Shown in pieces: positions 3,921 through 22,047 of a DNA stretch of 64,000 nucleotides. The stretch spans positions 544,001 through 608,000 of the forward strand of contig CP060223.1 of assembly GCA_023898465.1 (NCBI GenBank), in the 5' to 3' direction. Every line of letters begins with the position of its first letter. The stretch's first letter is position 1. Below the pieces are notes generated by a model. That model worked only from the letters and a program-made list of their open reading frames with translations, did not search any database and was not told the origin of the DNA. The position numbers were made by a program, and so were the translations under genes. The stretch is from Candidatus Nomurabacteria bacterium (GTDB lineage: Bacteria > Patescibacteriota > Patescibacteriia > HK-STAS-PATE-3).

Positions 3921-5087
3921 CTAGGCTGTGGGTATTTCGGGTGGTGTTTGCGTTAAGGTATAGTCCCCGTTATCTAATCGAGTAAACATTTGTCGATTGG
4001 TCAGCGCCAAATGAATGGTGTTCTTTTTCACGACACGCTGAGAAAGCACCTCAGCAACCAGTGCTTCTCGGCTCATCGGCTCACCTTTTTTGCGAAGAAT
4101 GTCAGCTAACACTTCAGCTACCACACCTTCTTTGTAGCCCCACTCGCGCAAGGCATAAATTCCACGGCCAACTAACACATATTCCTTATTGAGAATCAGC
4201 TCATTATGCACGGTCGGCGGATATGCTTTACGAGGATCAAAGCCGGCGGTATTAATCCGCTTTGCAATTTCAGTGAAGTGAAGAGGTTGGCCCTCTTTCT
4301 TTAGGATAAGGTAAATCTTATCATTCATACGACGAGGAGAAATGCTTCCCCAGCTCGTCAAACCATATTCGTCAAAAGGATTGCGTCCTAAATCCTTACC
4401 CAGCTGCAAGGCTGAATGCAACATATCATCTGACAACGCATGCTCATGAATTTTTGCAAACTCTGTCTGGCGAAACTCTTGGAGTAAGTCTGGCAACTCA
4501 ACCGGGTGTCCGATCTTGGTAACCACGCTGACTAACTCACGAACAGTCTGTCGCAAGAGATCGAGTCCGGCACCCTTTAGTTTCCAGGCCCGGCGCATTG
4601 TTTCGCTCTCAGGCATCAATTCAACAGTATCTTTTAGTAATTCACTCAAGACAAAAATAACCGCTCGGCGATTCATGTCGCTTGGACCAGAAAAGCTGAG
4701 TAAGTGTTCGAGGAGCGCTTCCTCTTCCATAATGCCGCCCCGAGCAGTCAGCGTGGTAGTCAAAAGCTGCTGCACCTGGTGCATTACCTGATCAAAGACC
4801 TTGGCTCGGCGGATTTTCTTTACCGCAGTTCCCTCAATCTGGCGAATACGCTCACGAGTAACCTGATAAAGCGCACCAATCTCTTCTAGGGTCTGCGTTT
4901 CTTTGCCGCTTAAACCGTGTCGGCGACGTAAAATATCCTCTTCCTTTCCTGTTAGCTCTTTGAGTAACAAAGAAATGGTTTCAGAGGGGTTAAATTGCTC
5001 CATATCAGTTTGCTGCTTGGAGCTGAGGATTTTGTCCAAAATTGAGTTGGACTCGTTTGTATCCATTGACGTATTGCTTACAATCAA
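3921..5087 (-). CDS. DNA-binding protein with a sigma-70 region-4 HTH followed by two HARE-HTH-like winged helices. The start may be the second Met, at 5066.
   Basis: LTGKEEDILRRRHGL..TLEEIGALYQVTRERIRQIEGTAVKKIR is sigma-70 region 4. KIYLILKKEGQPLHFTEIAKRIN..HNELILNKEYVLVGRGIYALREWGY is a HARE-HTH, with a second copy earlier in the protein. A strong sigma-70 promoter lies immediately upstream. Confidence 0.7.
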   Translation of the reverse strand: MIVSNTSMDTNESNSILDKILSSKQQTDMEQFNPSETISLLLKELTGKEEDILRRRHGLSGKETQTLEEIGALYQVTRERIRQIEGTAVKKIRRAKVFDQVMHQVQQLLTTTLTARGGIMEEEALLEHLLSFSGPSDMNRRAVIFVLSELLKDTVELMPESETMRRAWKLKGAGLDLLRQTVRELVSVVTKIGHPVELPDLLQEFRQTEFAKIHEHALSDDMLHSALQLGKDLGRNPFDEYGLTSWGSISPRRMNDKIYLILKKEGQPLHFTEIAKRINTAGFDPRKAYPPTVHNELILNKEYVLVGRGIYALREWGYKEGVVAEVLADILRKKGEPMSREALVAEVLSQRVVKKNTIHLALTNRQMFTRLDNGDYTLTQTPPEIPTA

Positions 5088-12986: not shown

Positions 12987-13670
12987 TCAGCTCAGCGGAT
13001 GAGCCTCCAGGTAGGCATTGAGCTCCTGGATACCGCTCGCAACACGTCTCCCTTCATCAGGGGTGATTTCTTCTTCCTCCTCCAGTAGCGAGAGGAGTCC
13101 GGAGAGTGTGAAGAGGGAGTGGAGTTGAATTCCGTTCTTGGCCAAATCCCGCATCCCTCCGCCTTCCCGATCCACCACCACGAGACAGTCGGTCACTACC
13201 AGACCCTTCTCTCGCAGAGCCTGTGCTGCCTCTAGCTTGGAGTCAGCCGCTGTGACGACATCATCAAGCATGAGGCAAGCAGCACCAGCTTGCATGCTCC
13301 CATGCACGATCGAAGCAATCTTCCGCTTCCCTCCCGCCTCACCCTTCTCCATCCGAAGGAGTCGGTCAGCTGGCAAATCAGCTGAGAAGACAAAACTCTC
13401 AGCAAGCGGTTCCGCCGCCGTTGGCAAACCCACGACATGAAAGAAAGCCAGCTCCCTCCGCTGTGCACAGAGACGAAACTCACGGGCAATCTCTGTGATC
13501 AGCAGGGCGGTAAGCTCGCCCCGAGGTGCTACACGCAGGTTGATGTAGATTGGAGAAAGCGGAGCTTCGGGCAAACGATCGTGCACCTTCAGTCTGAATT
13601 CACCCGTCTGCACAATCCCCTTACGGTAGAGCTGCACCCCCAAACGCCTGAGTCTCGATTCCGTAGTCAT
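12987..13670 (-). CDS. pyrE: Orotate phosphoribosyltransferase-like (PyrE), encoded in a GC-rich patch.
   Basis: LMLDDVVTAADSKLEAAQALREKG...LVVVDREGGG parallels E. coli PyrE MLVDDVITAGTAIRE...LISLDRQERG. N-terminal FRLKVHDRLPEAPLSPIYINLR. No other pyr genes nearby. Confidence 0.6.
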   Translation of the reverse strand: MTTESRLRRLGVQLYRKGIVQTGEFRLKVHDRLPEAPLSPIYINLRVAPRGELTALLITEIAREFRLCAQRRELAFFHVVGLPTAAEPLAESFVFSADLPADRLLRMEKGEAGGKRKIASIVHGSMQAGAACLMLDDVVTAADSKLEAAQALREKGLVVTDCLVVVDREGGGMRDLAKNGIQLHSLFTLSGLLSLLEEEEEITPDEGRRVASGIQELNAYLEAHPLS

Positions 13671-13759
13671 CGCGCCTCCCCTCTTCTTGCCTGTAGAAAA
13701 AAGTGCAATAAATCGGCCTCACGCTAACATGAAGTTAATCCTTGGTCAACTAAAAACTA

Positions 13760-14296
13760 CTATGGCCTTTGGTAATACCCTAGCAGCTGAGCCTGCGCCA
13801 ATATATGTCCTTGCATTACCTGCTCTAAATCATCCTTGGTAGCACCCTCCTCCAAATCTAAAAAGGTATCTAGAGCATATAAGGTAAAAATATACCGATG
13901 TGTTCCATTTGGTGGACAGGGGCCGCCCCATTGCAAACGCTGAAAATCATTCGTGCCTTGTCGGGCATTAGGCGGAACACTATTTTCTACTATCTCATTG
14001 GTATCTGGTGAAATATCCCAAACTATCCAATGATCCCAAGTGCTTCCCGGCGCATCAGGGTCATCCATCACTAGCGCAAAACTGACCGTGCCGTCCGGAG
14101 TTTCACTAATATGCAAAGGTGGATTCACATCATCTCCATCGCATGTATACTGTGAAGGAATTTTTTCACCTTCTTGAAAGGCTGTACTCGTAAGTCGCAT
14201 ATCTCCCTCCTTGCTAGCATCTTTCTTGCTAGCTATGAAATAAAGAAGTACTGCGCCGCAAAAAAGAGCAATAACTATTATGAGACGAATACGCAT
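13760..14296 (-). CDS. YbhB/YbcL-type PEBP (Raf-kinase-inhibitor-like) family protein, membrane anchored.
   Basis: CDGDDVNPPL...DPDAP...WDHW...GPCPPNGTHRYIFTLYALD signature. Confidence 0.8.
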   Translation of the reverse strand: MRIRLIIVIALFCGAVLLYFIASKKDASKEGDMRLTSTAFQEGEKIPSQYTCDGDDVNPPLHISETPDGTVSFALVMDDPDAPGSTWDHWIVWDISPDTNEIVENSVPPNARQGTNDFQRLQWGGPCPPNGTHRYIFTLYALDTFLDLEEGATKDDLEQVMQGHILAQAQLLGYYQRP

Positions 14297-14358
14297 GCAT
14301 CCTCACTATACACCTGATGAGCGAACAAGCAAGCTATACATAGAGAAGATAAAGGGCG

Positions 14359-14399
14359 TGTAAAGTCAACTTGACGTGCTAAAAAGAAAGCAGTAGGCT
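14359..14399 (+). promoter_or_regulatory. Promoter TTGACG-N17-TAGGCT, overlapped by an 18-bp near-palindrome TGTAAAGTCAACTTGACG (candidate XRE operator). The mRNA is predicted leaderless.
   Basis: Read directly. The same palindrome recurs at 15051-15068. Confidence 0.5.
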
Positions 14400-14405
14400 A
14401 GCGCT

Positions 14406-14609
14406 ATGGAAAAGGTATTGAATAAAGTGGCTGAGTACCGGCAGAAAAATGAAGAGACCCAAGAGGAACTTGCGGCAGCTGTTGGCGTCACCCGCCAAAC
14501 GGTTATTGCTATTGAGCGAGGTAACTACACCCCTTCGGTTCGGCTTGCGTTAAAAATCGCCCAGCATTACAGTAAAAAGACTGATGATATTTTTTCACTC
14601 GACGAATAA
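14406..14609 (+). CDS. XRE-family (Cro/CI-type) HTH transcriptional regulator.
   Basis: QEELAAAVGVTRQTVIAIERGNYTPSVRLALKIAQ is a canonical XRE HTH. Confidence 0.8.
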   Translation: MEKVLNKVAEYRQKNEETQEELAAAVGVTRQTVIAIERGNYTPSVRLALKIAQHYSKKTDDIFSLDE

Positions 14610-14612
14610 CGT

Positions 14613-14966
14613 ATGAATACGCGCGCCACGCTTATCCTCGCCATAATCATTATTTTACTGAGTCTAGGCCTGCTTAATCCTTTTGATTGGTGGATGCCGA
14701 GTACCCTAGAAATGTCTTTCATCGTTATTTTAGCGCTGATCGGTTTTGCTTATGCTGCTTTTTTCTGGAAAGAGCGTCCGCGAGATGAGCGAGAAGAACA
14801 TGTACAACGAAAAGCCGGACGCAGCGCCTTCTTAGCTGGCATCCTCATCGGTATTACAGGCATCATTGTACAAGGCCTGCAACATGCCTTAGATGCTTGG
14901 CTCATTGCCACCGTAGCCGTTATGTTGCTAGCAAAGATTATTGCAACACTCCAGCAGGAAAAATAA
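14613..14966 (+). CDS. Small membrane protein partner of the XRE regulator (DUF2178-like arrangement).
   Basis: 3-4 predicted TM helices. 3-nt gap after the HTH gene. Confidence 0.5.
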   Translation: MNTRATLILAIIIILLSLGLLNPFDWWMPSTLEMSFIVILALIGFAYAAFFWKERPRDEREEHVQRKAGRSAFLAGILIGITGIIVQGLQHALDAWLIATVAVMLLAKIIATLQQEK

Positions 14967-15050
14967 TCAGCTTATAGCATAATTCGTCCAATAGCACCCA
15001 ACATGCTTGCGTGCCGAACCCCCGCACCATGTTAGATGCGGGGAAAGGCA

Positions 15051-15091
15051 TGTAAAGTCGACTTGACATATAAAAACTTGCCGTTTACACT
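15051..15091 (+). promoter_or_regulatory. Promoter TTGACA-N17-TACACT, overlapped by the 18-bp palindrome TGTAAAGTCGACTTGACA (second copy of the XRE operator).
   Basis: Read directly. The block is 22/25 identical to 14351-14376. Confidence 0.5.
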
Positions 15092-15122
15092 AAGGGCAAT
15101 TACTTTTAAACCCGGAGATCCC

Positions 15123-15758
15123 ATGCTTAACATCAAAGATCAACGAGGCCTCAGCGGTCTAACCATTGCAGCGATAATCACCATTATTGCAGTTGCTTTG
15201 GGGTTAATTATTTATTTTACCAGCACAAATTCAAGCAACAGCAACGAAAACGAATCCATGATGCAAGATGAAAATACAAACGAAGCGATGATGGATGACC
15301 ACATGGATGACAATACAAATGAGGCCATGGTGGACGACGAAGAACACATGATGGAAGACGACACAAACACCAATAGCGACGCCATGATGGAGGATGACGA
15401 GCATGCAATGGAAAAAGATGGCAGCGCAAACACTAACTCGGTTAGCGCCGCTCCTGGTCAATACATTGATTACACGCCAGCTGCTTTTGCTAGCGCCAGC
15501 GATGAAAAGCGTGTGCTTTTTTTTCACGCCACCTGGTGTCCAACCTGCAAAGCTGCGAACGAAGCATTTACATCGCGGCTTGATGAGATCCCTTCAGGAG
15601 TTGTCATTTTAAAAACTGATTACGATTCCCAAACTGCCTTAAAAAATAAGTACGACATCACCTACCAGCACACTTTTGTACAGGTCGATGCCGATGGAAA
15701 TGAATTAGCAAAATGGAATGGTGGAGACGTTGACCTCTTAGCAAGGAAGCTGCAATAA
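15123..15758 (+). CDS. Membrane-anchored thioredoxin-family protein (WCPTC) with a Met/Asp/Glu/His-rich low-complexity linker.
   Basis: TM helix LTIAAIITIIAVALGLIIYF. Linker NEAMMDDHMDDNTNEAMVDDEEHMMEDD... C-terminal thioredoxin fold RVLFFHATWCPTCKAA. Confidence 0.7.
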   Translation: MLNIKDQRGLSGLTIAAIITIIAVALGLIIYFTSTNSSNSNENESMMQDENTNEAMMDDHMDDNTNEAMVDDEEHMMEDDTNTNSDAMMEDDEHAMEKDGSANTNSVSAAPGQYIDYTPAAFASASDEKRVLFFHATWCPTCKAANEAFTSRLDEIPSGVVILKTDYDSQTALKNKYDITYQHTFVQVDADGNELAKWNGGDVDLLARKLQ

Positions 15759-15762
15759 ATCC

Positions 15763-17496
15763 ATGCTATTACTTATTGGATTTGCCTTTCTCGCCGGTGT
15801 CGTCACCGTCCTCTCACCCTGTATTCTGCCAATACTACCGGTTATCCTGACTGGATCAGTGACTGGCAGTAAACGGAGGCCGCTCGGAATTGTTCTCGGC
15901 TTTATTTTAAGCTTCAGCTTTTTTACACTTTTCCTGGCCACCATTGTGCAGTCTACTGGAATCTCAGCCGGGGCTTTACGGACCTTCTCAATTGTCGTGC
16001 TCTTCGGCTTTGGGGTTAGCCTCCTCTTCCCTCGAGTCCAAGTCTGGCTAGAGCAACTTTTCTCGCGCCTTTCTAGCCGAGCACCCCGTCAAGCAAATCG
16101 AACTGGCTTTTGGGGCGGCATCCTCATCGGACTTAGTATTGGCTTGCTATGGACGCCTTGTGTCGGCCCAATCTTGGCATCGGTTATTTCACTCGCGCTC
16201 ACCGGCTCAGTAAGCAGCGGCGCCGCATTTATCACCCTAGCCTATGCTATCGGAACAGCTATTCCAATGCTGGCGATCATGTATGGCGGACGTCATCTCT
16301 TGCAGCGAGTGCCTTGGCTAATGCAAAACACCGGTCGCATCCAAAAGGCTTTTGGTGTGTTCATGATTATTACGGCAATTGGTATTTCAGCCAACCTTGA
16401 TAGGAAATTTCAAACCTTTATTCTCGATACCTTCCCAAACTATGGCATTGGCTTAACTAAGATTGAGGACAACGAGCAAGTCCAGCAAGAATTAGATAAG
16501 CTTAATGCTGAGCCAAATGAAGATATCCAAGGCAAGCCTATGAACGAAGCAACCCAGAGCAAAAAAGAAGACACGCCCGCGCCTGAGCTCATCCCAGGCG
16601 GTGAATGGTTTAATTCCGATCCACTAAGCTTAAAAGAGCTGCGTGGTAAAGTGGTACTGGTTGATTTTTGGACCTACAGTTGCATTAATTGCCAGCGCAC
16701 CCTCCCCTACCTCAGGGACTGGTGGGAGAAATACAAGGATGATGGACTGGTCATCATTGGCGTACACACACCTGAATTTGAATTTGAAAAAGATCCTGAT
16801 AACGTGGCAAAAGCATTGCGGGATTACGAGATTGATTATCCGGTCATGCAGGATAACAACTTCGCTACCTGGTCAGCATATAAAAATCGCTATTGGCCCA
16901 GGAAGTATTTAGTCGATCAAAATGGTAACATCATCTATGATCACATTGGCGAAGGTGGCTATGAAGAAACTGAACGACAAATCCAAGAGGCATTACAAAA
17001 CGCAGGCAAGTCAGTCAATGCAAGTATTAGCACCGAAACAACGGATACTGATTTCACCCAAATTGCTACACCGGAGCTTTATTTTGGCTCAGCTCGAAAT
17101 CAATACCTCGGCAACGGTACTCAATTTCAAACTGGATCCCAAGAGCTCACTCTGCCGGATGATATGAAAAAAAATATGCTCTACCTAAGCGGAACTTGGA
17201 ACTTCCAGGACGAGTACGCAACAAATTCAAATACGGCAAGTATTACACTTCCCTATCAAGCGAAGAATGTCTACATGGTGGCAGCAGCGGATAACGCTGT
17301 GCAGCTGCAACTCAAGTTGGATGGAGAAAACCTTAGCTCAACTCAAACAGGTGCAGATGTCGATAAAAACGGTCAGGTTACCATACAAGCCCACACCCTT
17401 TATCATCTCATTAGCACAGAAAACTACGGCAGCCATACACTGACGATTGAAATCCCAGCCGCTGGACTAGAGGCTTACACTTTTACCTTCGGGTAA
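15763..17496 (+). CDS. CcdA/DsbD-type transmembrane electron-transfer domain fused to a TlpA/ResA-like thioredoxin domain, plus an extra C-terminal domain of about 170 aa.
   Basis: N-terminal LSPCILPILPV (CcdA Cys motif) and 6 TM helices. VVLVDFWTYSCINCQRTLPYL is a TlpA-type CxxC. 4-nt gap from the upstream thioredoxin gene. Confidence 0.8.
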   Translation: MLLLIGFAFLAGVVTVLSPCILPILPVILTGSVTGSKRRPLGIVLGFILSFSFFTLFLATIVQSTGISAGALRTFSIVVLFGFGVSLLFPRVQVWLEQLFSRLSSRAPRQANRTGFWGGILIGLSIGLLWTPCVGPILASVISLALTGSVSSGAAFITLAYAIGTAIPMLAIMYGGRHLLQRVPWLMQNTGRIQKAFGVFMIITAIGISANLDRKFQTFILDTFPNYGIGLTKIEDNEQVQQELDKLNAEPNEDIQGKPMNEATQSKKEDTPAPELIPGGEWFNSDPLSLKELRGKVVLVDFWTYSCINCQRTLPYLRDWWEKYKDDGLVIIGVHTPEFEFEKDPDNVAKALRDYEIDYPVMQDNNFATWSAYKNRYWPRKYLVDQNGNIIYDHIGEGGYEETERQIQEALQNAGKSVNASISTETTDTDFTQIATPELYFGSARNQYLGNGTQFQTGSQELTLPDDMKKNMLYLSGTWNFQDEYATNSNTASITLPYQAKNVYMVAAADNAVQLQLKLDGENLSSTQTGADVDKNGQVTIQAHTLYHLISTENYGSHTLTIEIPAAGLEAYTFTFG

Positions 17497-17501
17497 AGTA
17501 G

Positions 17502-17948
17502 CTATACGGTTGTTTGCATTTTGCGCATTTCGTTACGGCGCAGAAGCAGGCTCACTACAAAAATTCCGAGGTAGAAAAAGAATCCATACACACAAGCTGG
17601 GAGGGATTCTGGCTTCTCCGCAGCCAACCACAATTCGTATACCGAGAGACTCAGTGCAAAAAGCGTGCCCACCAAACCTAACCAAACTAAAGCATTGGCG
17701 ATACCTTTTGAACTTCCCTTCACCCAATAGATTGCGGATAAAATTCCAATAGCCACATACATGGCAAATCCATATACGCAGTTTGGTAAGCCAACAATAT
17801 ATACAGGGTTCACTCCGCAGCTAATAATGGTTTGACCACATCCGTTCGCAAACAAATTTACATAGCTTAAATAGCCTGACAAGAGACCGCCCAACACCAC
17901 GAAAAGCAAAATCAAAGTTAAGGCCAACGAAGATTTCATATGTTTCAA
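17502..17948 (-). CDS. 4-TM membrane protein with four conserved Cys (C-x7-C loop pair and two LP[NA]CVYGF repeats). Possible thiol-disulfide oxidoreductase.
   Basis: NGCGQTIISCG. GLPNCVYGFAMY and SLPACVYGFFFY form an internal repeat. No CxxC, so not a canonical DsbB or VKOR. Confidence 0.5.
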   Translation of the reverse strand: MKHMKSSLALTLILLFVVLGGLLSGYLSYVNLFANGCGQTIISCGVNPVYIVGLPNCVYGFAMYVAIGILSAIYWVKGSSKGIANALVWLGLVGTLFALSLSVYELWLAAEKPESLPACVYGFFFYLGIFVVSLLLRRNEMRKMQTTV

Positions 17949-18035
17949 AGTTAAGGAATCTTTAACACCTCGGCTTGCAGCGCGCGACAGTTTTTTAGAC
18001 CGTGAGCCCGCTGCAAAACAAGTTTCAAAGAAATA

Positions 18036-18284
18036 CTATTGCTGAGGCATCGAAGGCATGCTCGATGAACCTGACTTGCCTTTTGCTGGCAAGGTAACAA
18101 GCACGTACAACGCTGAGAGACCAACGAGGACGTAGACGATCTTGGAAACCACTGAGAGATCGCCAAAAATAGTTGCTACCAAATCAAATTCAAAAGCACC
18201 GTATAGACCCCAGTTAAGGCCACCAATGACGAGAAGGATCATTGCGATCCAATCCATTACATTCATTTTCATAACGTTACTCAC
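18036..18284 (-). CDS. DUF378 family small membrane protein.
   Basis: WIAMILLVIGGLNWGLYGAFEFDLV...IVYVLVGLSALYVL matches the DUF378 pattern. Confidence 0.7.
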   Translation of the reverse strand: MSNVMKMNVMDWIAMILLVIGGLNWGLYGAFEFDLVATIFGDLSVVSKIVYVLVGLSALYVLVTLPAKGKSGSSSMPSMPQQ

Positions 18285-18363
18285 CCCCTTTCTTGTTATG
18301 CTGTGAATAAGTATAGCACTGAATGAAAAATAGTGCTATATATTGGGATTTATTACTAGAATA

Positions 18364-18394
18364 CAAAAACCCCGCTTTCACGGGGCTTTTGTTT
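18364..18394 (-). terminator. Rho-independent terminator (bidirectional type) after the DUF1761 gene.
   Basis: AAAAACCCCGCTTTCACGGGGCTTTTGTTT: 5-6 bp GC stem with A-run and T-run flanks. Confidence 0.6.
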
Positions 18395-18407
18395 AGTGCA
18401 ATACAAA

Positions 18408-18836
18408 TTACTGCCACACGGCTAAAATAGCCCCCATAACAAGGAGCTGAACCAGGTGATAGCCAGTGGTAATGGCAAAGTGGCCAAACTTCTTAAACTC
18501 AAATAAGTAGTTTGTACCAACAGTGGCAAAGACAAATCCTAGCCACATCCAAAAACCGGTAAGCAACCCATCTACCAATGTGGTAACTTTTACATACCCA
18601 ATGACATGCGCAAGTACATAAGCTACAACTAAAGAAAGAATAAAGGCAAAGAACATTGATCTTGCCGGATTCCCCTCTTTAATTTGCTCCTCGGTTTTTC
18701 CTACAAAGCCCATCCAGGCCTTACCAAAAACGCTTCGTGCGTACCAAATACTACCAACCAACATGGATGAGGCACCAGCAACTAAAACCGCCCAATAATT
18801 AATAGCTACATCGAACACATAATCACCCCCTTTCAA
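18408..18836 (-). CDS. DUF1761 family membrane protein.
   Basis: INYWAVLVAGASSMLVGSIWYARSVFGKAWMG... is the typical DUF1761 N-terminus. 4 TM helices. Confidence 0.65.
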   Translation of the reverse strand: MKGGDYVFDVAINYWAVLVAGASSMLVGSIWYARSVFGKAWMGFVGKTEEQIKEGNPARSMFFAFILSLVVAYVLAHVIGYVKVTTLVDGLLTGFWMWLGFVFATVGTNYLFEFKKFGHFAITTGYHLVQLLVMGAILAVWQ

Positions 18837-21251: not shown

Positions 21252-22047
21252 ATTGTTGCTTAAGAGTCTTGGTAGCTTGCGCTAAAGTGGATGTATAGGC
21301 CTCACCGGCTGCCACAACTGCACTTCGCCGTGCTTCGCTTAGCTGTTGTAGGTCATCGCTACTTGCTCGTAAATCACTAAGTGCAATTTGTAAAGTTCGC
21401 TTCGCAGCGGCAAAAGCATCAAGAAGTGTGCTCTTCACCGCGCTCGCATTTACACCACTAACACAATCAATTTTCGCTGCATCTAGAGCAACTGCAATTT
21501 CGCTTTTATACTCATCAGTTGCTGCGGCAGTAATGCTTTTACGTTCAGCCAATAAATCCTCAAGCCCTTTACGATATGTCGCCAACGCTGCATCAACGGC
21601 TGCACGACGAATCTCTATCGCGTCTTCAACATTTTGGATAAATGCTTCCACCGCTTGCTTCTGAATTTCCGTATTTGCCCTTGCACGTAAGCGAGTAAAT
21701 TGTTGTAGACGATTTTTATCCCAGGTATCCCGATGCTCATCAAGCGATTGCTCGCGACTTTCCACCCGGGTATTCCAGCTTTGCTCACGACGATTTTGTA
21801 CGAGGCTTACCGCATCCTCCTTAGCAGAGAAACGCTGGCTTTGCTGTACAAGTAAAGTATCAAGCCGCGTACATAGCGCTGATTCCACTTGCTCTTGTAA
21901 TTCCGCGCTACGTGCGTTTGTAGCGTCAGCCACATTTCGCGCTTTATTTACCGCAGATCCGAAATTTACTTGAGCCAAAGCGAGTGTTGGCAAAACAGCT
22001 AACACGATTAGGGCAACTATTGAAATGCGATGCGTGGTGTAGCGCAT
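21229..22047 (-). CDS. Secreted A/Q/E-rich coiled-coil protein, hypothetical.
   Basis: Signal peptide IVALIVLAVLPTLALAQ. The rest is heptad-like and low complexity. Confidence 0.5.
   Translation of the reverse strand: MRYTTHRISIVALIVLAVLPTLALAQVNFGSAVNKARNVADATNARSAELQEQVESALCTRLDTLLVQQSQRFSAKEDAVSLVQNRREQSWNTRVESREQSLDEHRDTWDKNRLQQFTRLRARANTEIQKQAVEAFIQNVEDAIEIRRAAVDAALATYRKGLEDLLAERKSITAAATDEYKSEIAVALDAAKIDCVSGVNASAVKSTLLDAFAAAKRTLQIALSDLRASSDDLQQLSEARRSAVVAAGEAYTSTLAQATKTLKQQFGEQSND

Follow-up and report, generated by a model that had tools for sequence, protein, structure and literature searches.

A conserved palindromic element shared by a CylR2-type XRE gene and a thioredoxin/DipZ operon: a candidate regulatory link in Patescibacteria

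Genes and operator copies in the window

The DNA considered here is a 64-kb stretch of a Candidatus Nomurabacteria genome (the window; positions are counted from its first letter), in which a short gene for an XRE regulator and a gene for a small membrane protein directly precede an operon encoding a thioredoxin-fold protein and a DipZ-type fusion. Upstream of each of the two units lies a copy of the same palindromic element, which we treat as a candidate operator. A sequence-only reading of this DNA had proposed that the element joins the regulator to the thiol-redox genes. The features of the locus are listed below (TM, transmembrane).

14358 to 14377, no strand assigned: operator site 1 (GTGTAAAGTCAACTTGACGT), the weaker of the two copies, located ahead of the XRE gene; 12/20 positions self-complementary, 15/18 identical to the consensus of the family; in other species, XRE genes are preceded by homologous sites at a distance of 19-100 nt
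14371 to 14376, + strand: TTGACG, the putative -35 hexamer of the promoter for the XRE gene and at the same time the right operator half of site 1; read from the sequence, with the same fusion seen across the family
14394 to 14399, + strand: TAGGCT, the putative -10 hexamer of this promoter, separated by 17 nt from the -35 and by 6 nt from the ATG; weak (3/6)
14406 to 14609, + strand: single-domain XRE/HTH_3 regulator of 67 aa that belongs to the CylR2 family (Pfam HTH_3, E 1.3e-12)
14613 to 14966, + strand: 117-aa four-TM partner protein, starting 3 nt past the XRE stop codon, with a cytoplasmic E..DERE..H..AGR loop
15008 to 15054, + strand: stable hairpin (-29.4 kcal/mol, z = -3.5) without a U-tract, which follows the partner gene and overlaps the first bases of operator site 2
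15050 to 15069, no strand assigned: operator site 2 (ATGTAAAGTCGACTTGACAT), which forms an almost perfect palindrome of 20 bp before the thioredoxin/DipZ operon; 18/20 positions self-complementary, 17/18 to the family consensus; an equivalent site in 42/60 loci
15063 to 15091, + strand: TTGACA-17-TACACT, a sigma-70-type promoter for the thioredoxin/DipZ operon, scored at 10/12 by the promoter scan
15123 to 15758, + strand: membrane-anchored protein of the thioredoxin fold, in which an N-terminal TM helix is followed by acidic Met/His-rich repeats and a WCPTC domain; its Shine-Dalgarno sequence is GGAG at 15113-15116
15763 to 17496, + strand: DipZ-type fusion of 577 aa, comprising a CcdA/DsbD transmembrane carrier, a TlpA/ResA-like thioredoxin domain and a Thioredoxin_10 C-terminal domain

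The regulator contains neither a cysteine nor a sensor domain. Its profile matches CylR2 (1utx) in the PDB with an E-value of 2.8e-17, and BLASTP aligns the two proteins at 43% identity over 60 aa (E 1e-17). Neither this family membership nor the membrane partner had been discussed in the sequence-only reading. The invariant residues of the partner are M28, D58, E59, R60, R70 and K108, of which M28 is positioned in the first outer loop in a conserved W-M-P motif. A precomputed annotation assigns the partner to PF09946 (DUF2178), and a Pfam hmmscan of the partner and 22 homologues returned no DUF2178 match.

The two proteins encoded behind site 2 resemble known redox carriers. The first matches the Pfam Thioredoxin family (E 1e-8) and thioredoxins in the PDB (E 1e-8); its gene is taken to start at 15123, as the alternative start at 15036 would precede the promoter, and by the positive-inside rule its thioredoxin domain is predicted to face outward. 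The linker of this protein is encoded by five imperfect ~30-nt direct repeats (15242-15400) that translate into an acidic, Met/His-rich low-complexity segment (..ESMMQDE..EAMMDDHMDD..EAMVDDEEHMMEDD..DAMMEDDEHAME..); homologues elsewhere all contain Met-rich linkers, which differ in length and sequence. The second protein matches DsbD_TM (E 3e-13), AhpC-TSA/Redoxin and Thioredoxin_10 in Pfam, and in the PDB it matches Mycobacterium tuberculosis DipZ (2hyx, 5cyy; E 1.2e-64) and CcdA (5vkv; E 5e-13).

The 18-mers at the core of the two sites, TGTAAAGTCAACTTGACG at 14359-14376 and TGTAAAGTCGACTTGACA at 15051-15068 (both read on the + strand), lie where they had been reported and are indeed rare. 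With up to 3 mismatches allowed, the 64-kb window holds no match besides the two 18-mers, except that of site 2 to itself on the other strand, and the expectation from shuffled sequence is 0.20. A search with the family pattern (TGTAAAGN4CTTTACA, up to 2 mismatches) returned 14359, 15051 and 21389 as compared to a shuffle mean of 0.2; the two 18-mers are the sole intergenic matches in the 64 kb. The third match, 21389-21406 (TGTAAAGTTCGCTTCGCA), was rejected as a chance occurrence, as it is located within a coding 277-aa open reading frame on the - strand and its right half is degenerate. The repeat shared by sites 1 and 2 extends to 33 nt at 79% identity, and its best 25-nt block contains 21 identities, one fewer than the 22 originally counted.

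Both sites finish in a -35-like hexamer, TTGACG at site 1 and TTGACA at site 2, so that the proposed overlap of the element with both promoters is borne out. At site 2, TTGACA is followed after 17 nt by TACACT, and after a further ~20 nt GGAG precedes the ATG at 15123; the centre of the operator lies ~38-39 bp upstream of the predicted start. This arrangement is maintained in other species, as a -10 element (at least 4/6 matches) occurs 16-18 nt past the right half-site at 32 of 37 orthologous downstream sites, versus 15% of control positions. Because this spacing is kept, we read the right half-site as the -35 of a near-consensus promoter. The XRE promoter (TTGACG-17-TAGGCT) was too weak to be listed by the promoter scan, and was accepted because of its homology with other loci.

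The XRE mRNA is probably leaderless, to judge from the arrangement of its promoter. TAGGCT ends 6 nt before the ATG at 14406, and no Shine-Dalgarno (GGAGG-like) sequence precedes this start codon, as compared to the GGAG ahead of the thioredoxin gene; in ~10 orthologous loci the distance between the -10 and the XRE start is likewise 6-12 nt. The earlier suggestion of a leaderless message is therefore upheld in its geometry, with the start itself predicted. In a separate subgroup (L008, L011, L016, L026, L029 and L052) no palindrome is found upstream of the XRE gene, where a conserved TGTAAAATACC..(8-10 nt)..ATG arrangement is present instead. It places a TAAAAT -10 very near the start codon and resembles a lone left half-site, which suggests that the XRE mRNA may be leaderless there too.

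The candidate operator and its predicted redox targets across species

The conservation of the element was assessed in 80 species-level loci retrieved from an alignment of XRE homologues (A1). These loci derive mainly from Patescibacteria, with a few from archaea, Firmicutes, Chloroflexia and Elusimicrobia. The exact-match contigs L001-L007 share 100% identity with the window and were dropped as independent evidence. In 60 of the 80 loci the four-TM partner gene adjoins the XRE gene, and these 60 loci form the core comparison set.

The family pattern collected 75 sites from the 80 loci, and positions outside the pattern are conserved in them: a flanking A in 58 and a flanking T in 66 of the 75, and an inner T in 56 and an inner A in 60. 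Because these unselected positions are conserved, we define the motif of the family as a palindrome of 20 bp, A-TGTAAAGT-NN-ACTT(T/G)ACA-T. Its left half, which reaches 12-14 bp upstream of the -35, is conserved as strongly as its right half. Many XRE genes have sites upstream within the distance listed above, frequently in two copies, and some sites are located away from any -35, directly before start codons. In five loci (L015, L022, L023, L048 and L069) a second site covers the -10/start region just before the ATG.

At least one site is present in 58 of the 60 core loci. It lies only directly past the partner gene in 30 loci, only upstream of the XRE gene in 16, and at both places, as in the window, in 12; a site directly past the partner gene and before the redox operon was counted in 42 of the 60. 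These downstream sites are located 540-680 nt past the XRE start (645 nt in the window) and are closer to the consensus than the upstream ones, with a mean of 0.93 versus 1.66 mismatches, a trend that is repeated in the window. Among the closest relatives, L209 (76% XRE identity) has both sites, whereas L210 (70%) has two sites before the thioredoxin gene. The motif also accompanies the XRE gene in a Methanoperedenaceae archaeon, a nanoarchaeon, a Clostridia metagenome-assembled genome and Exiguobacterium (L049, L064, L076 and L082). A second sample was assembled from the motif only and comprises 80 metagenome contigs chosen for an exact TGTAAAGTNNACTTKACA. In 41 of them a CylR2-like XRE gene lies within 1 kb of the site, most of them without redox genes; we conclude from this co-occurrence that the motif tracks the regulator family. 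Frequent occurrence at random positions, which the sequence-only reading had regarded as fatal to its proposal, is thus not what the window and the motif-chosen contigs reveal.

The genes downstream of the regulator recur as well. A membrane-anchored Met-rich thioredoxin and/or a CcdA/DipZ protein is encoded downstream in 55 of the 60 core loci, and tblastn over all 80 loci detected the thioredoxin in 43 and CcdA/DipZ in 53. When the gene immediately behind the downstream site was extracted in 30 cases, 24 encoded homologues of the window thioredoxin and 3 encoded CcdA(-TlpA) proteins. The small regulon originally proposed, joining the XRE gene to the thioredoxin/CcdA-TlpA genes, is thus seen well beyond this genome.

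Genes for the methionine sulfoxide reductases MsrA and MsrB form a recurrent addition, and are present within the 4-kb flanks in at least 17 of the 60 loci. Some follow DipZ on the same strand, and in four loci (L010, L014, L033 and L041) msrA or a TM-anchored msrB has its own site 54-96 nt upstream. In L010, L014 and L033 the msr genes are divergent and their own operator is located 75-96 nt upstream, whereas in L041 they are positioned between the operator and the XRE gene. Judged by these positions, the msr-linked operators would extend the regulon in those species. The operator copies directly before msrA or TM-anchored msrB are found at 3013 in L010, 3522 in L014, 2599 in L033, 163 in L041 and 6707/6740 in L142, and a small glutaredoxin gene lies between the msr genes and the XRE gene in L010 and L033. 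Further Met-rich proteins were also noted. TM-anchored Met-rich proteins without a thioredoxin domain are encoded in L009, L034, L047 and L073, and an extra TM-anchored Met-rich protein lies between the partner and thioredoxin genes in L020 (4867-5457), L022 (4623-5183) and L048 (~4591-4848). No Pfam family was found for this extra protein, whose unassigned C-terminal domain contains the motif ..QPAHIHVGACP...

Likeness to CylR2 and to envelope repair pathways

The family assignment of the regulator invites comparison with the cytolysin switch of Enterococcus faecalis. CylR2 represses the cytolysin promoter, and induction requires the small membrane protein CylR1 by a mechanism that was not understood at the time of a 2013 review (PMC3709268, which cites Haas et al. 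2002 and Rumpel et al. 2004). We read the cyl region from a pAD1-type plasmid sequence, where the interval from cylR1 to cylLL contains a single strong palindrome, TTTTGTCAAGTG-T-CACTTGACAAAA. The half-site of this palindrome, TGTCAAGT, is identical to TGTAAAGT at 7 of 8 bases, and the left arm provides the TTGACA of a TTGACA-17-TAATAT promoter that faces cylLL. The two systems therefore share a single-domain helix-turn-helix (HTH) regulator of about 66 aa, nearly identical half-sites, an inverted repeat placed over a TTGACA -35, and an adjoining co-directional gene for a small multi-TM protein with a DER sequence after a TM helix; neither contains a kinase or receiver domain. They differ in the inner gap of the operator, which is 2 nt in the window (an 18-bp core) and 3 nt in cyl (19 bp), and in gene order, as the HTH gene comes first in the window and the order is reversed in cyl. 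The membrane partner has 4 TM helices and 117 aa in the window as compared to 3 TM helices and 94 aa in CylR1. CylR1 carries KKDER past its first TM helix, and the invariant DER of the window partner is located in a cytoplasmic loop. The targets are also distinct: cyl is a lanthipeptide cytolysin operon with a peptide autoinducer in an Enterococcus host, whereas the patescibacterial window has thioredoxin and DipZ genes and no lanthipeptide genes. The pairing itself recurs in the wider family, as 41 of 55 further members have a small multi-TM gene of the same orientation next to them, either before or after the HTH gene, and 26 of these 41 neighbours, CylR1 included, contain DER.

The target genes resemble pathways that protect the cell surface. 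In Streptococcus pneumoniae, CcdA, Etrx and MsrAB2 constitute a pathway for resistance to extracellular oxidative stress (PMC3914529), and a related pathway is present in S. gordonii (PMC7034828). The pneumococcal pathway and the window family both combine a CcdA-type carrier, a surface thioredoxin-fold CxxC protein and, in loci related to the window, MsrA/MsrB in one cluster. Unlike its streptococcal counterpart, the CcdA part in the window is fused to TlpA-like and Thioredoxin_10 domains in a DipZ architecture, a TM helix and a Met-rich tail characterize the thioredoxin, which is not a lipoprotein, and no msr gene is present in the window. The cluster in the window family is linked to a CylR2-type XRE gene. 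The match to M. tuberculosis DipZ covers its soluble part, including the Thioredoxin_10 domain; the window protein also contains an N-terminal CcdA/DsbD_TM segment, and the two are set in different phyla and operon contexts. A further parallel is provided by MrpX/YedY1 of Azospira suillum, in which a periplasmic Met-rich oxidant sink is recycled by methionine sulfoxide reductase and scavenges hypochlorite (PMC4436054). There, as in the window family, an extracytoplasmic Met-rich polypeptide appears to be co-regulated with methionine sulfoxide reduction. However, the Azospira system is controlled by an extracytoplasmic function (ECF) sigma/anti-sigma pair and employs a molybdoenzyme as Msr, whereas the window has an XRE regulator and reductant that would be supplied by DipZ, and the Met-rich segment of the window family is fused to thioredoxin or TM-anchored, unlike MrpX. 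By analogy, we infer that the Met-rich segment may act as a sacrificial oxidant sink.

Proposed switch, competing explanations and minor features

We propose that the 67-aa XRE regulator, the shared operator and the thioredoxin/DipZ operon form one regulatory link, to which we assign a probability of roughly 0.75 on the strength of the sequence comparisons; our confidence in the sign of regulation, in the signal and in the role of the partner is lower. In the model, the CylR2-type protein, a dimer by homology, would recognize the 20-bp palindrome, and the repressor bound at the half-site that doubles as the -35 would block sigma-70 region 4. Binding to the weaker site 1 on its own promoter would produce negative autoregulation of the bicistron encoding the XRE protein and the four-TM partner, whereas binding to the near-consensus site 2 on the next promoter would control the Met-rich thioredoxin and the DipZ-type CcdA-TlpA fusion. 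Together these two proteins would transfer reducing power from the cytoplasm across the membrane to its outer face, and in related species the same operator would also control MsrA and membrane-anchored MsrB. The regulon most likely serves the defence and repair of oxidised methionines and thiols in the envelope. We favour repression by occlusion because the right half-site is the -35 of a near-consensus promoter, because second operators cover the -10/start region in several orthologues, and because CylR2 offers a precedent. Since the regulator is devoid of a sensor domain, and by analogy with CylR1/CylR2, the co-translated four-TM protein is the most likely signal input. In its design this switch is a conventional one, in which a partly autoregulated XRE repressor would act on a palindrome that covers the -35.

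Several observations weigh against parts of this model. No recognizable site is located upstream of the XRE gene in 30 of the 60 related loci, and in this genome the poor palindrome of site 1 (12/20) together with its weak -10, TAGGCT, implies that autoregulation may be weak or absent. Outside Enterococcus, the binding, expression and transcription start of family members are predicted from sequence, and within it the cyl palindrome is presumably the CylR2 site, as we read it from the sequence. When the partner alignment (A2) was compared with CylR1 by hhalign, homology was not shown (probability 4.9%, E 0.008, confined to the DER region). The methionine-repair reading rests on other species, as tblastn found no match to msrA or msrB in the 64-kb window. 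Finally, the distance of the operator centre from the predicted start also suits class II activators, and GakR, an XRE-type (Cro/C1) bacteriocin regulator likened to CylR2 by its authors, is reported to be a positive regulator although its inverted repeat overlaps the promoter.

The alternative that survives best concerns the function of the targets. The regulon could be devoted mainly to copper or silver handling, with the Met/His/Asp-rich thioredoxin tail binding Cu(I) and the DipZ pathway keeping envelope thiols reduced. The tail motifs MMDDHMDD, EEHMMEDD and DDEHAME resemble Met/His-rich periplasmic copper-binding segments, and TlpA-type thioredoxins serve copper-protein assembly in other bacteria. 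However, no copper ATPase, CopZ, multicopper oxidase or CopC/D is encoded beside the loci that were inspected; the recurrent extra genes are instead those for MsrA, MsrB and glutaredoxin, some of them behind their own operator, and a Met-rich oxidant sink recycled by Msr has a precedent (PMC4436054). We therefore regard a metal-centred regulon as unlikely, although it is the foremost of the alternatives. Because MsrA/MsrB genes neighbour the related loci, envelope methionine-sulfoxide and thiol repair is preferred over metal handling, so that of the thiol-reductant or metal-handling role offered by the sequence-only reading the thiol part is favoured and the metal part is unlikely.

The sign of regulation could also be the reverse of that proposed, with the regulator recognizing the same palindrome but activating the thioredoxin/DipZ promoter in the manner of a class II activator, by contacting RNA polymerase from the site that overlaps the -35. 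The position of the operator centre and the behaviour of GakR, both described above, would fit such a role. However, in 32/37 loci the target promoters come close to the consensus in themselves (TTGACA/TTTACA, 16-18 nt, TAtAcT), which implies that activation should be unneeded, the second sites over the -10/start region in the five loci named above represent a repressor layout, and CylR2 itself represses. Activation is accordingly a doubtful reading, somewhat less probable than a regulon for copper, and repression is retained.

Two further explanations are highly improbable. The copies could be merely similar promoters, or a chance repeat without a dedicated binding protein, as 6 of the 18 bases constitute the -35 hexamer and site 1 is a poor palindrome; but the left half is as conserved as the right, sites occur directly before start codons away from any -35, archaea and Firmicutes with the XRE gene carry the motif too, and an XRE gene lies beside the motif in 41 of the 80 motif-only contigs. 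A toxin-antitoxin pair or an immunity module of phage origin with no connection to the redox genes, as suggested by best NCBIfam matches to RstR, HipB, HigA, MqsA and PezA-type models and by the frequency of CylR2-like genes on Firmicutes plasmids, is equally hard to sustain, because all NCBIfam scores are at or below 31 bits as compared to cut-offs of ~48 to 335 bits, and the pair is syntenic with thioredoxin/DipZ in 55/60 loci and shares its operator with the promoter of that operon.

A more specific version of the repressor model, which we consider speculative and rather improbable, treats the XRE protein and its four-TM DER-loop partner as a phosphorelay-free, two-protein sensor of envelope oxidation. 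In this scheme M28 would be oxidised by HOCl or H2O2, a change in the DERE..H..AGR loop would capture or release the repressor, and the induced MsrA/MsrB, DipZ and thioredoxin would reduce M28 again and so reset the sensor. If true, it would explain how CylR1 signals to CylR2, and would hold for a large family with members in Patescibacteria, Firmicutes and archaea.

To our knowledge, no transcription factor regulon has been experimentally characterized in Patescibacteria (the candidate phyla radiation, CPR), and literature searches for the motif, DUF2178 and the regulon found nothing relevant. Patescibacteria are mostly not growable alone. Here, a 20-bp operator, its candidate regulator and its target operon are defined from sequence well enough for a direct test in vitro or in a surrogate host, and the wiring holds across many CPR lineages. 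It suggests that epibionts with small genomes invest in the regulated export of reducing power and in the repair of surface methionines. The half-site of CylR2 and its pairing with a small membrane protein appear to generalize far beyond the enterococcal cytolysin, and the loci described here offer new, simpler models for the CylR1/CylR2 signalling step.

Several minor features surround the module. Rfam over 13000-18500 gave nothing relevant; a match to the Brucella small RNA BSnc120 at 18346-18425 (- strand) scored 24.9 bits against a gathering threshold of 114 (E 0.022) and is almost certainly due to chance. A divergent gene for a PEBP/YbhB-family protein with an N-terminal signal or anchor sequence occupies 13760-14296 on the - strand, and its start is preceded by site 1 at a distance of 63 nt. 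A divergent PEBP promoter that uses the left half-site as its -35 was considered and rejected, as no acceptable -10 is present at 16-18 nt and PEBP is not conserved beside the module. On the other side, a convergent gene at 17502-17948 (- strand) adjoins the DipZ gene and encodes a 148-aa membrane protein with sub-threshold VKOR/DsbB matches, which could possibly represent a disulfide-forming counterpart to the reducing DipZ protein; like the PEBP gene, this neighbour is not conserved in related loci. The hairpin at 15008-15054 could be a terminator or an RNA-stability element between the two transcription units, and it is partly kept in the closest relative, L209.

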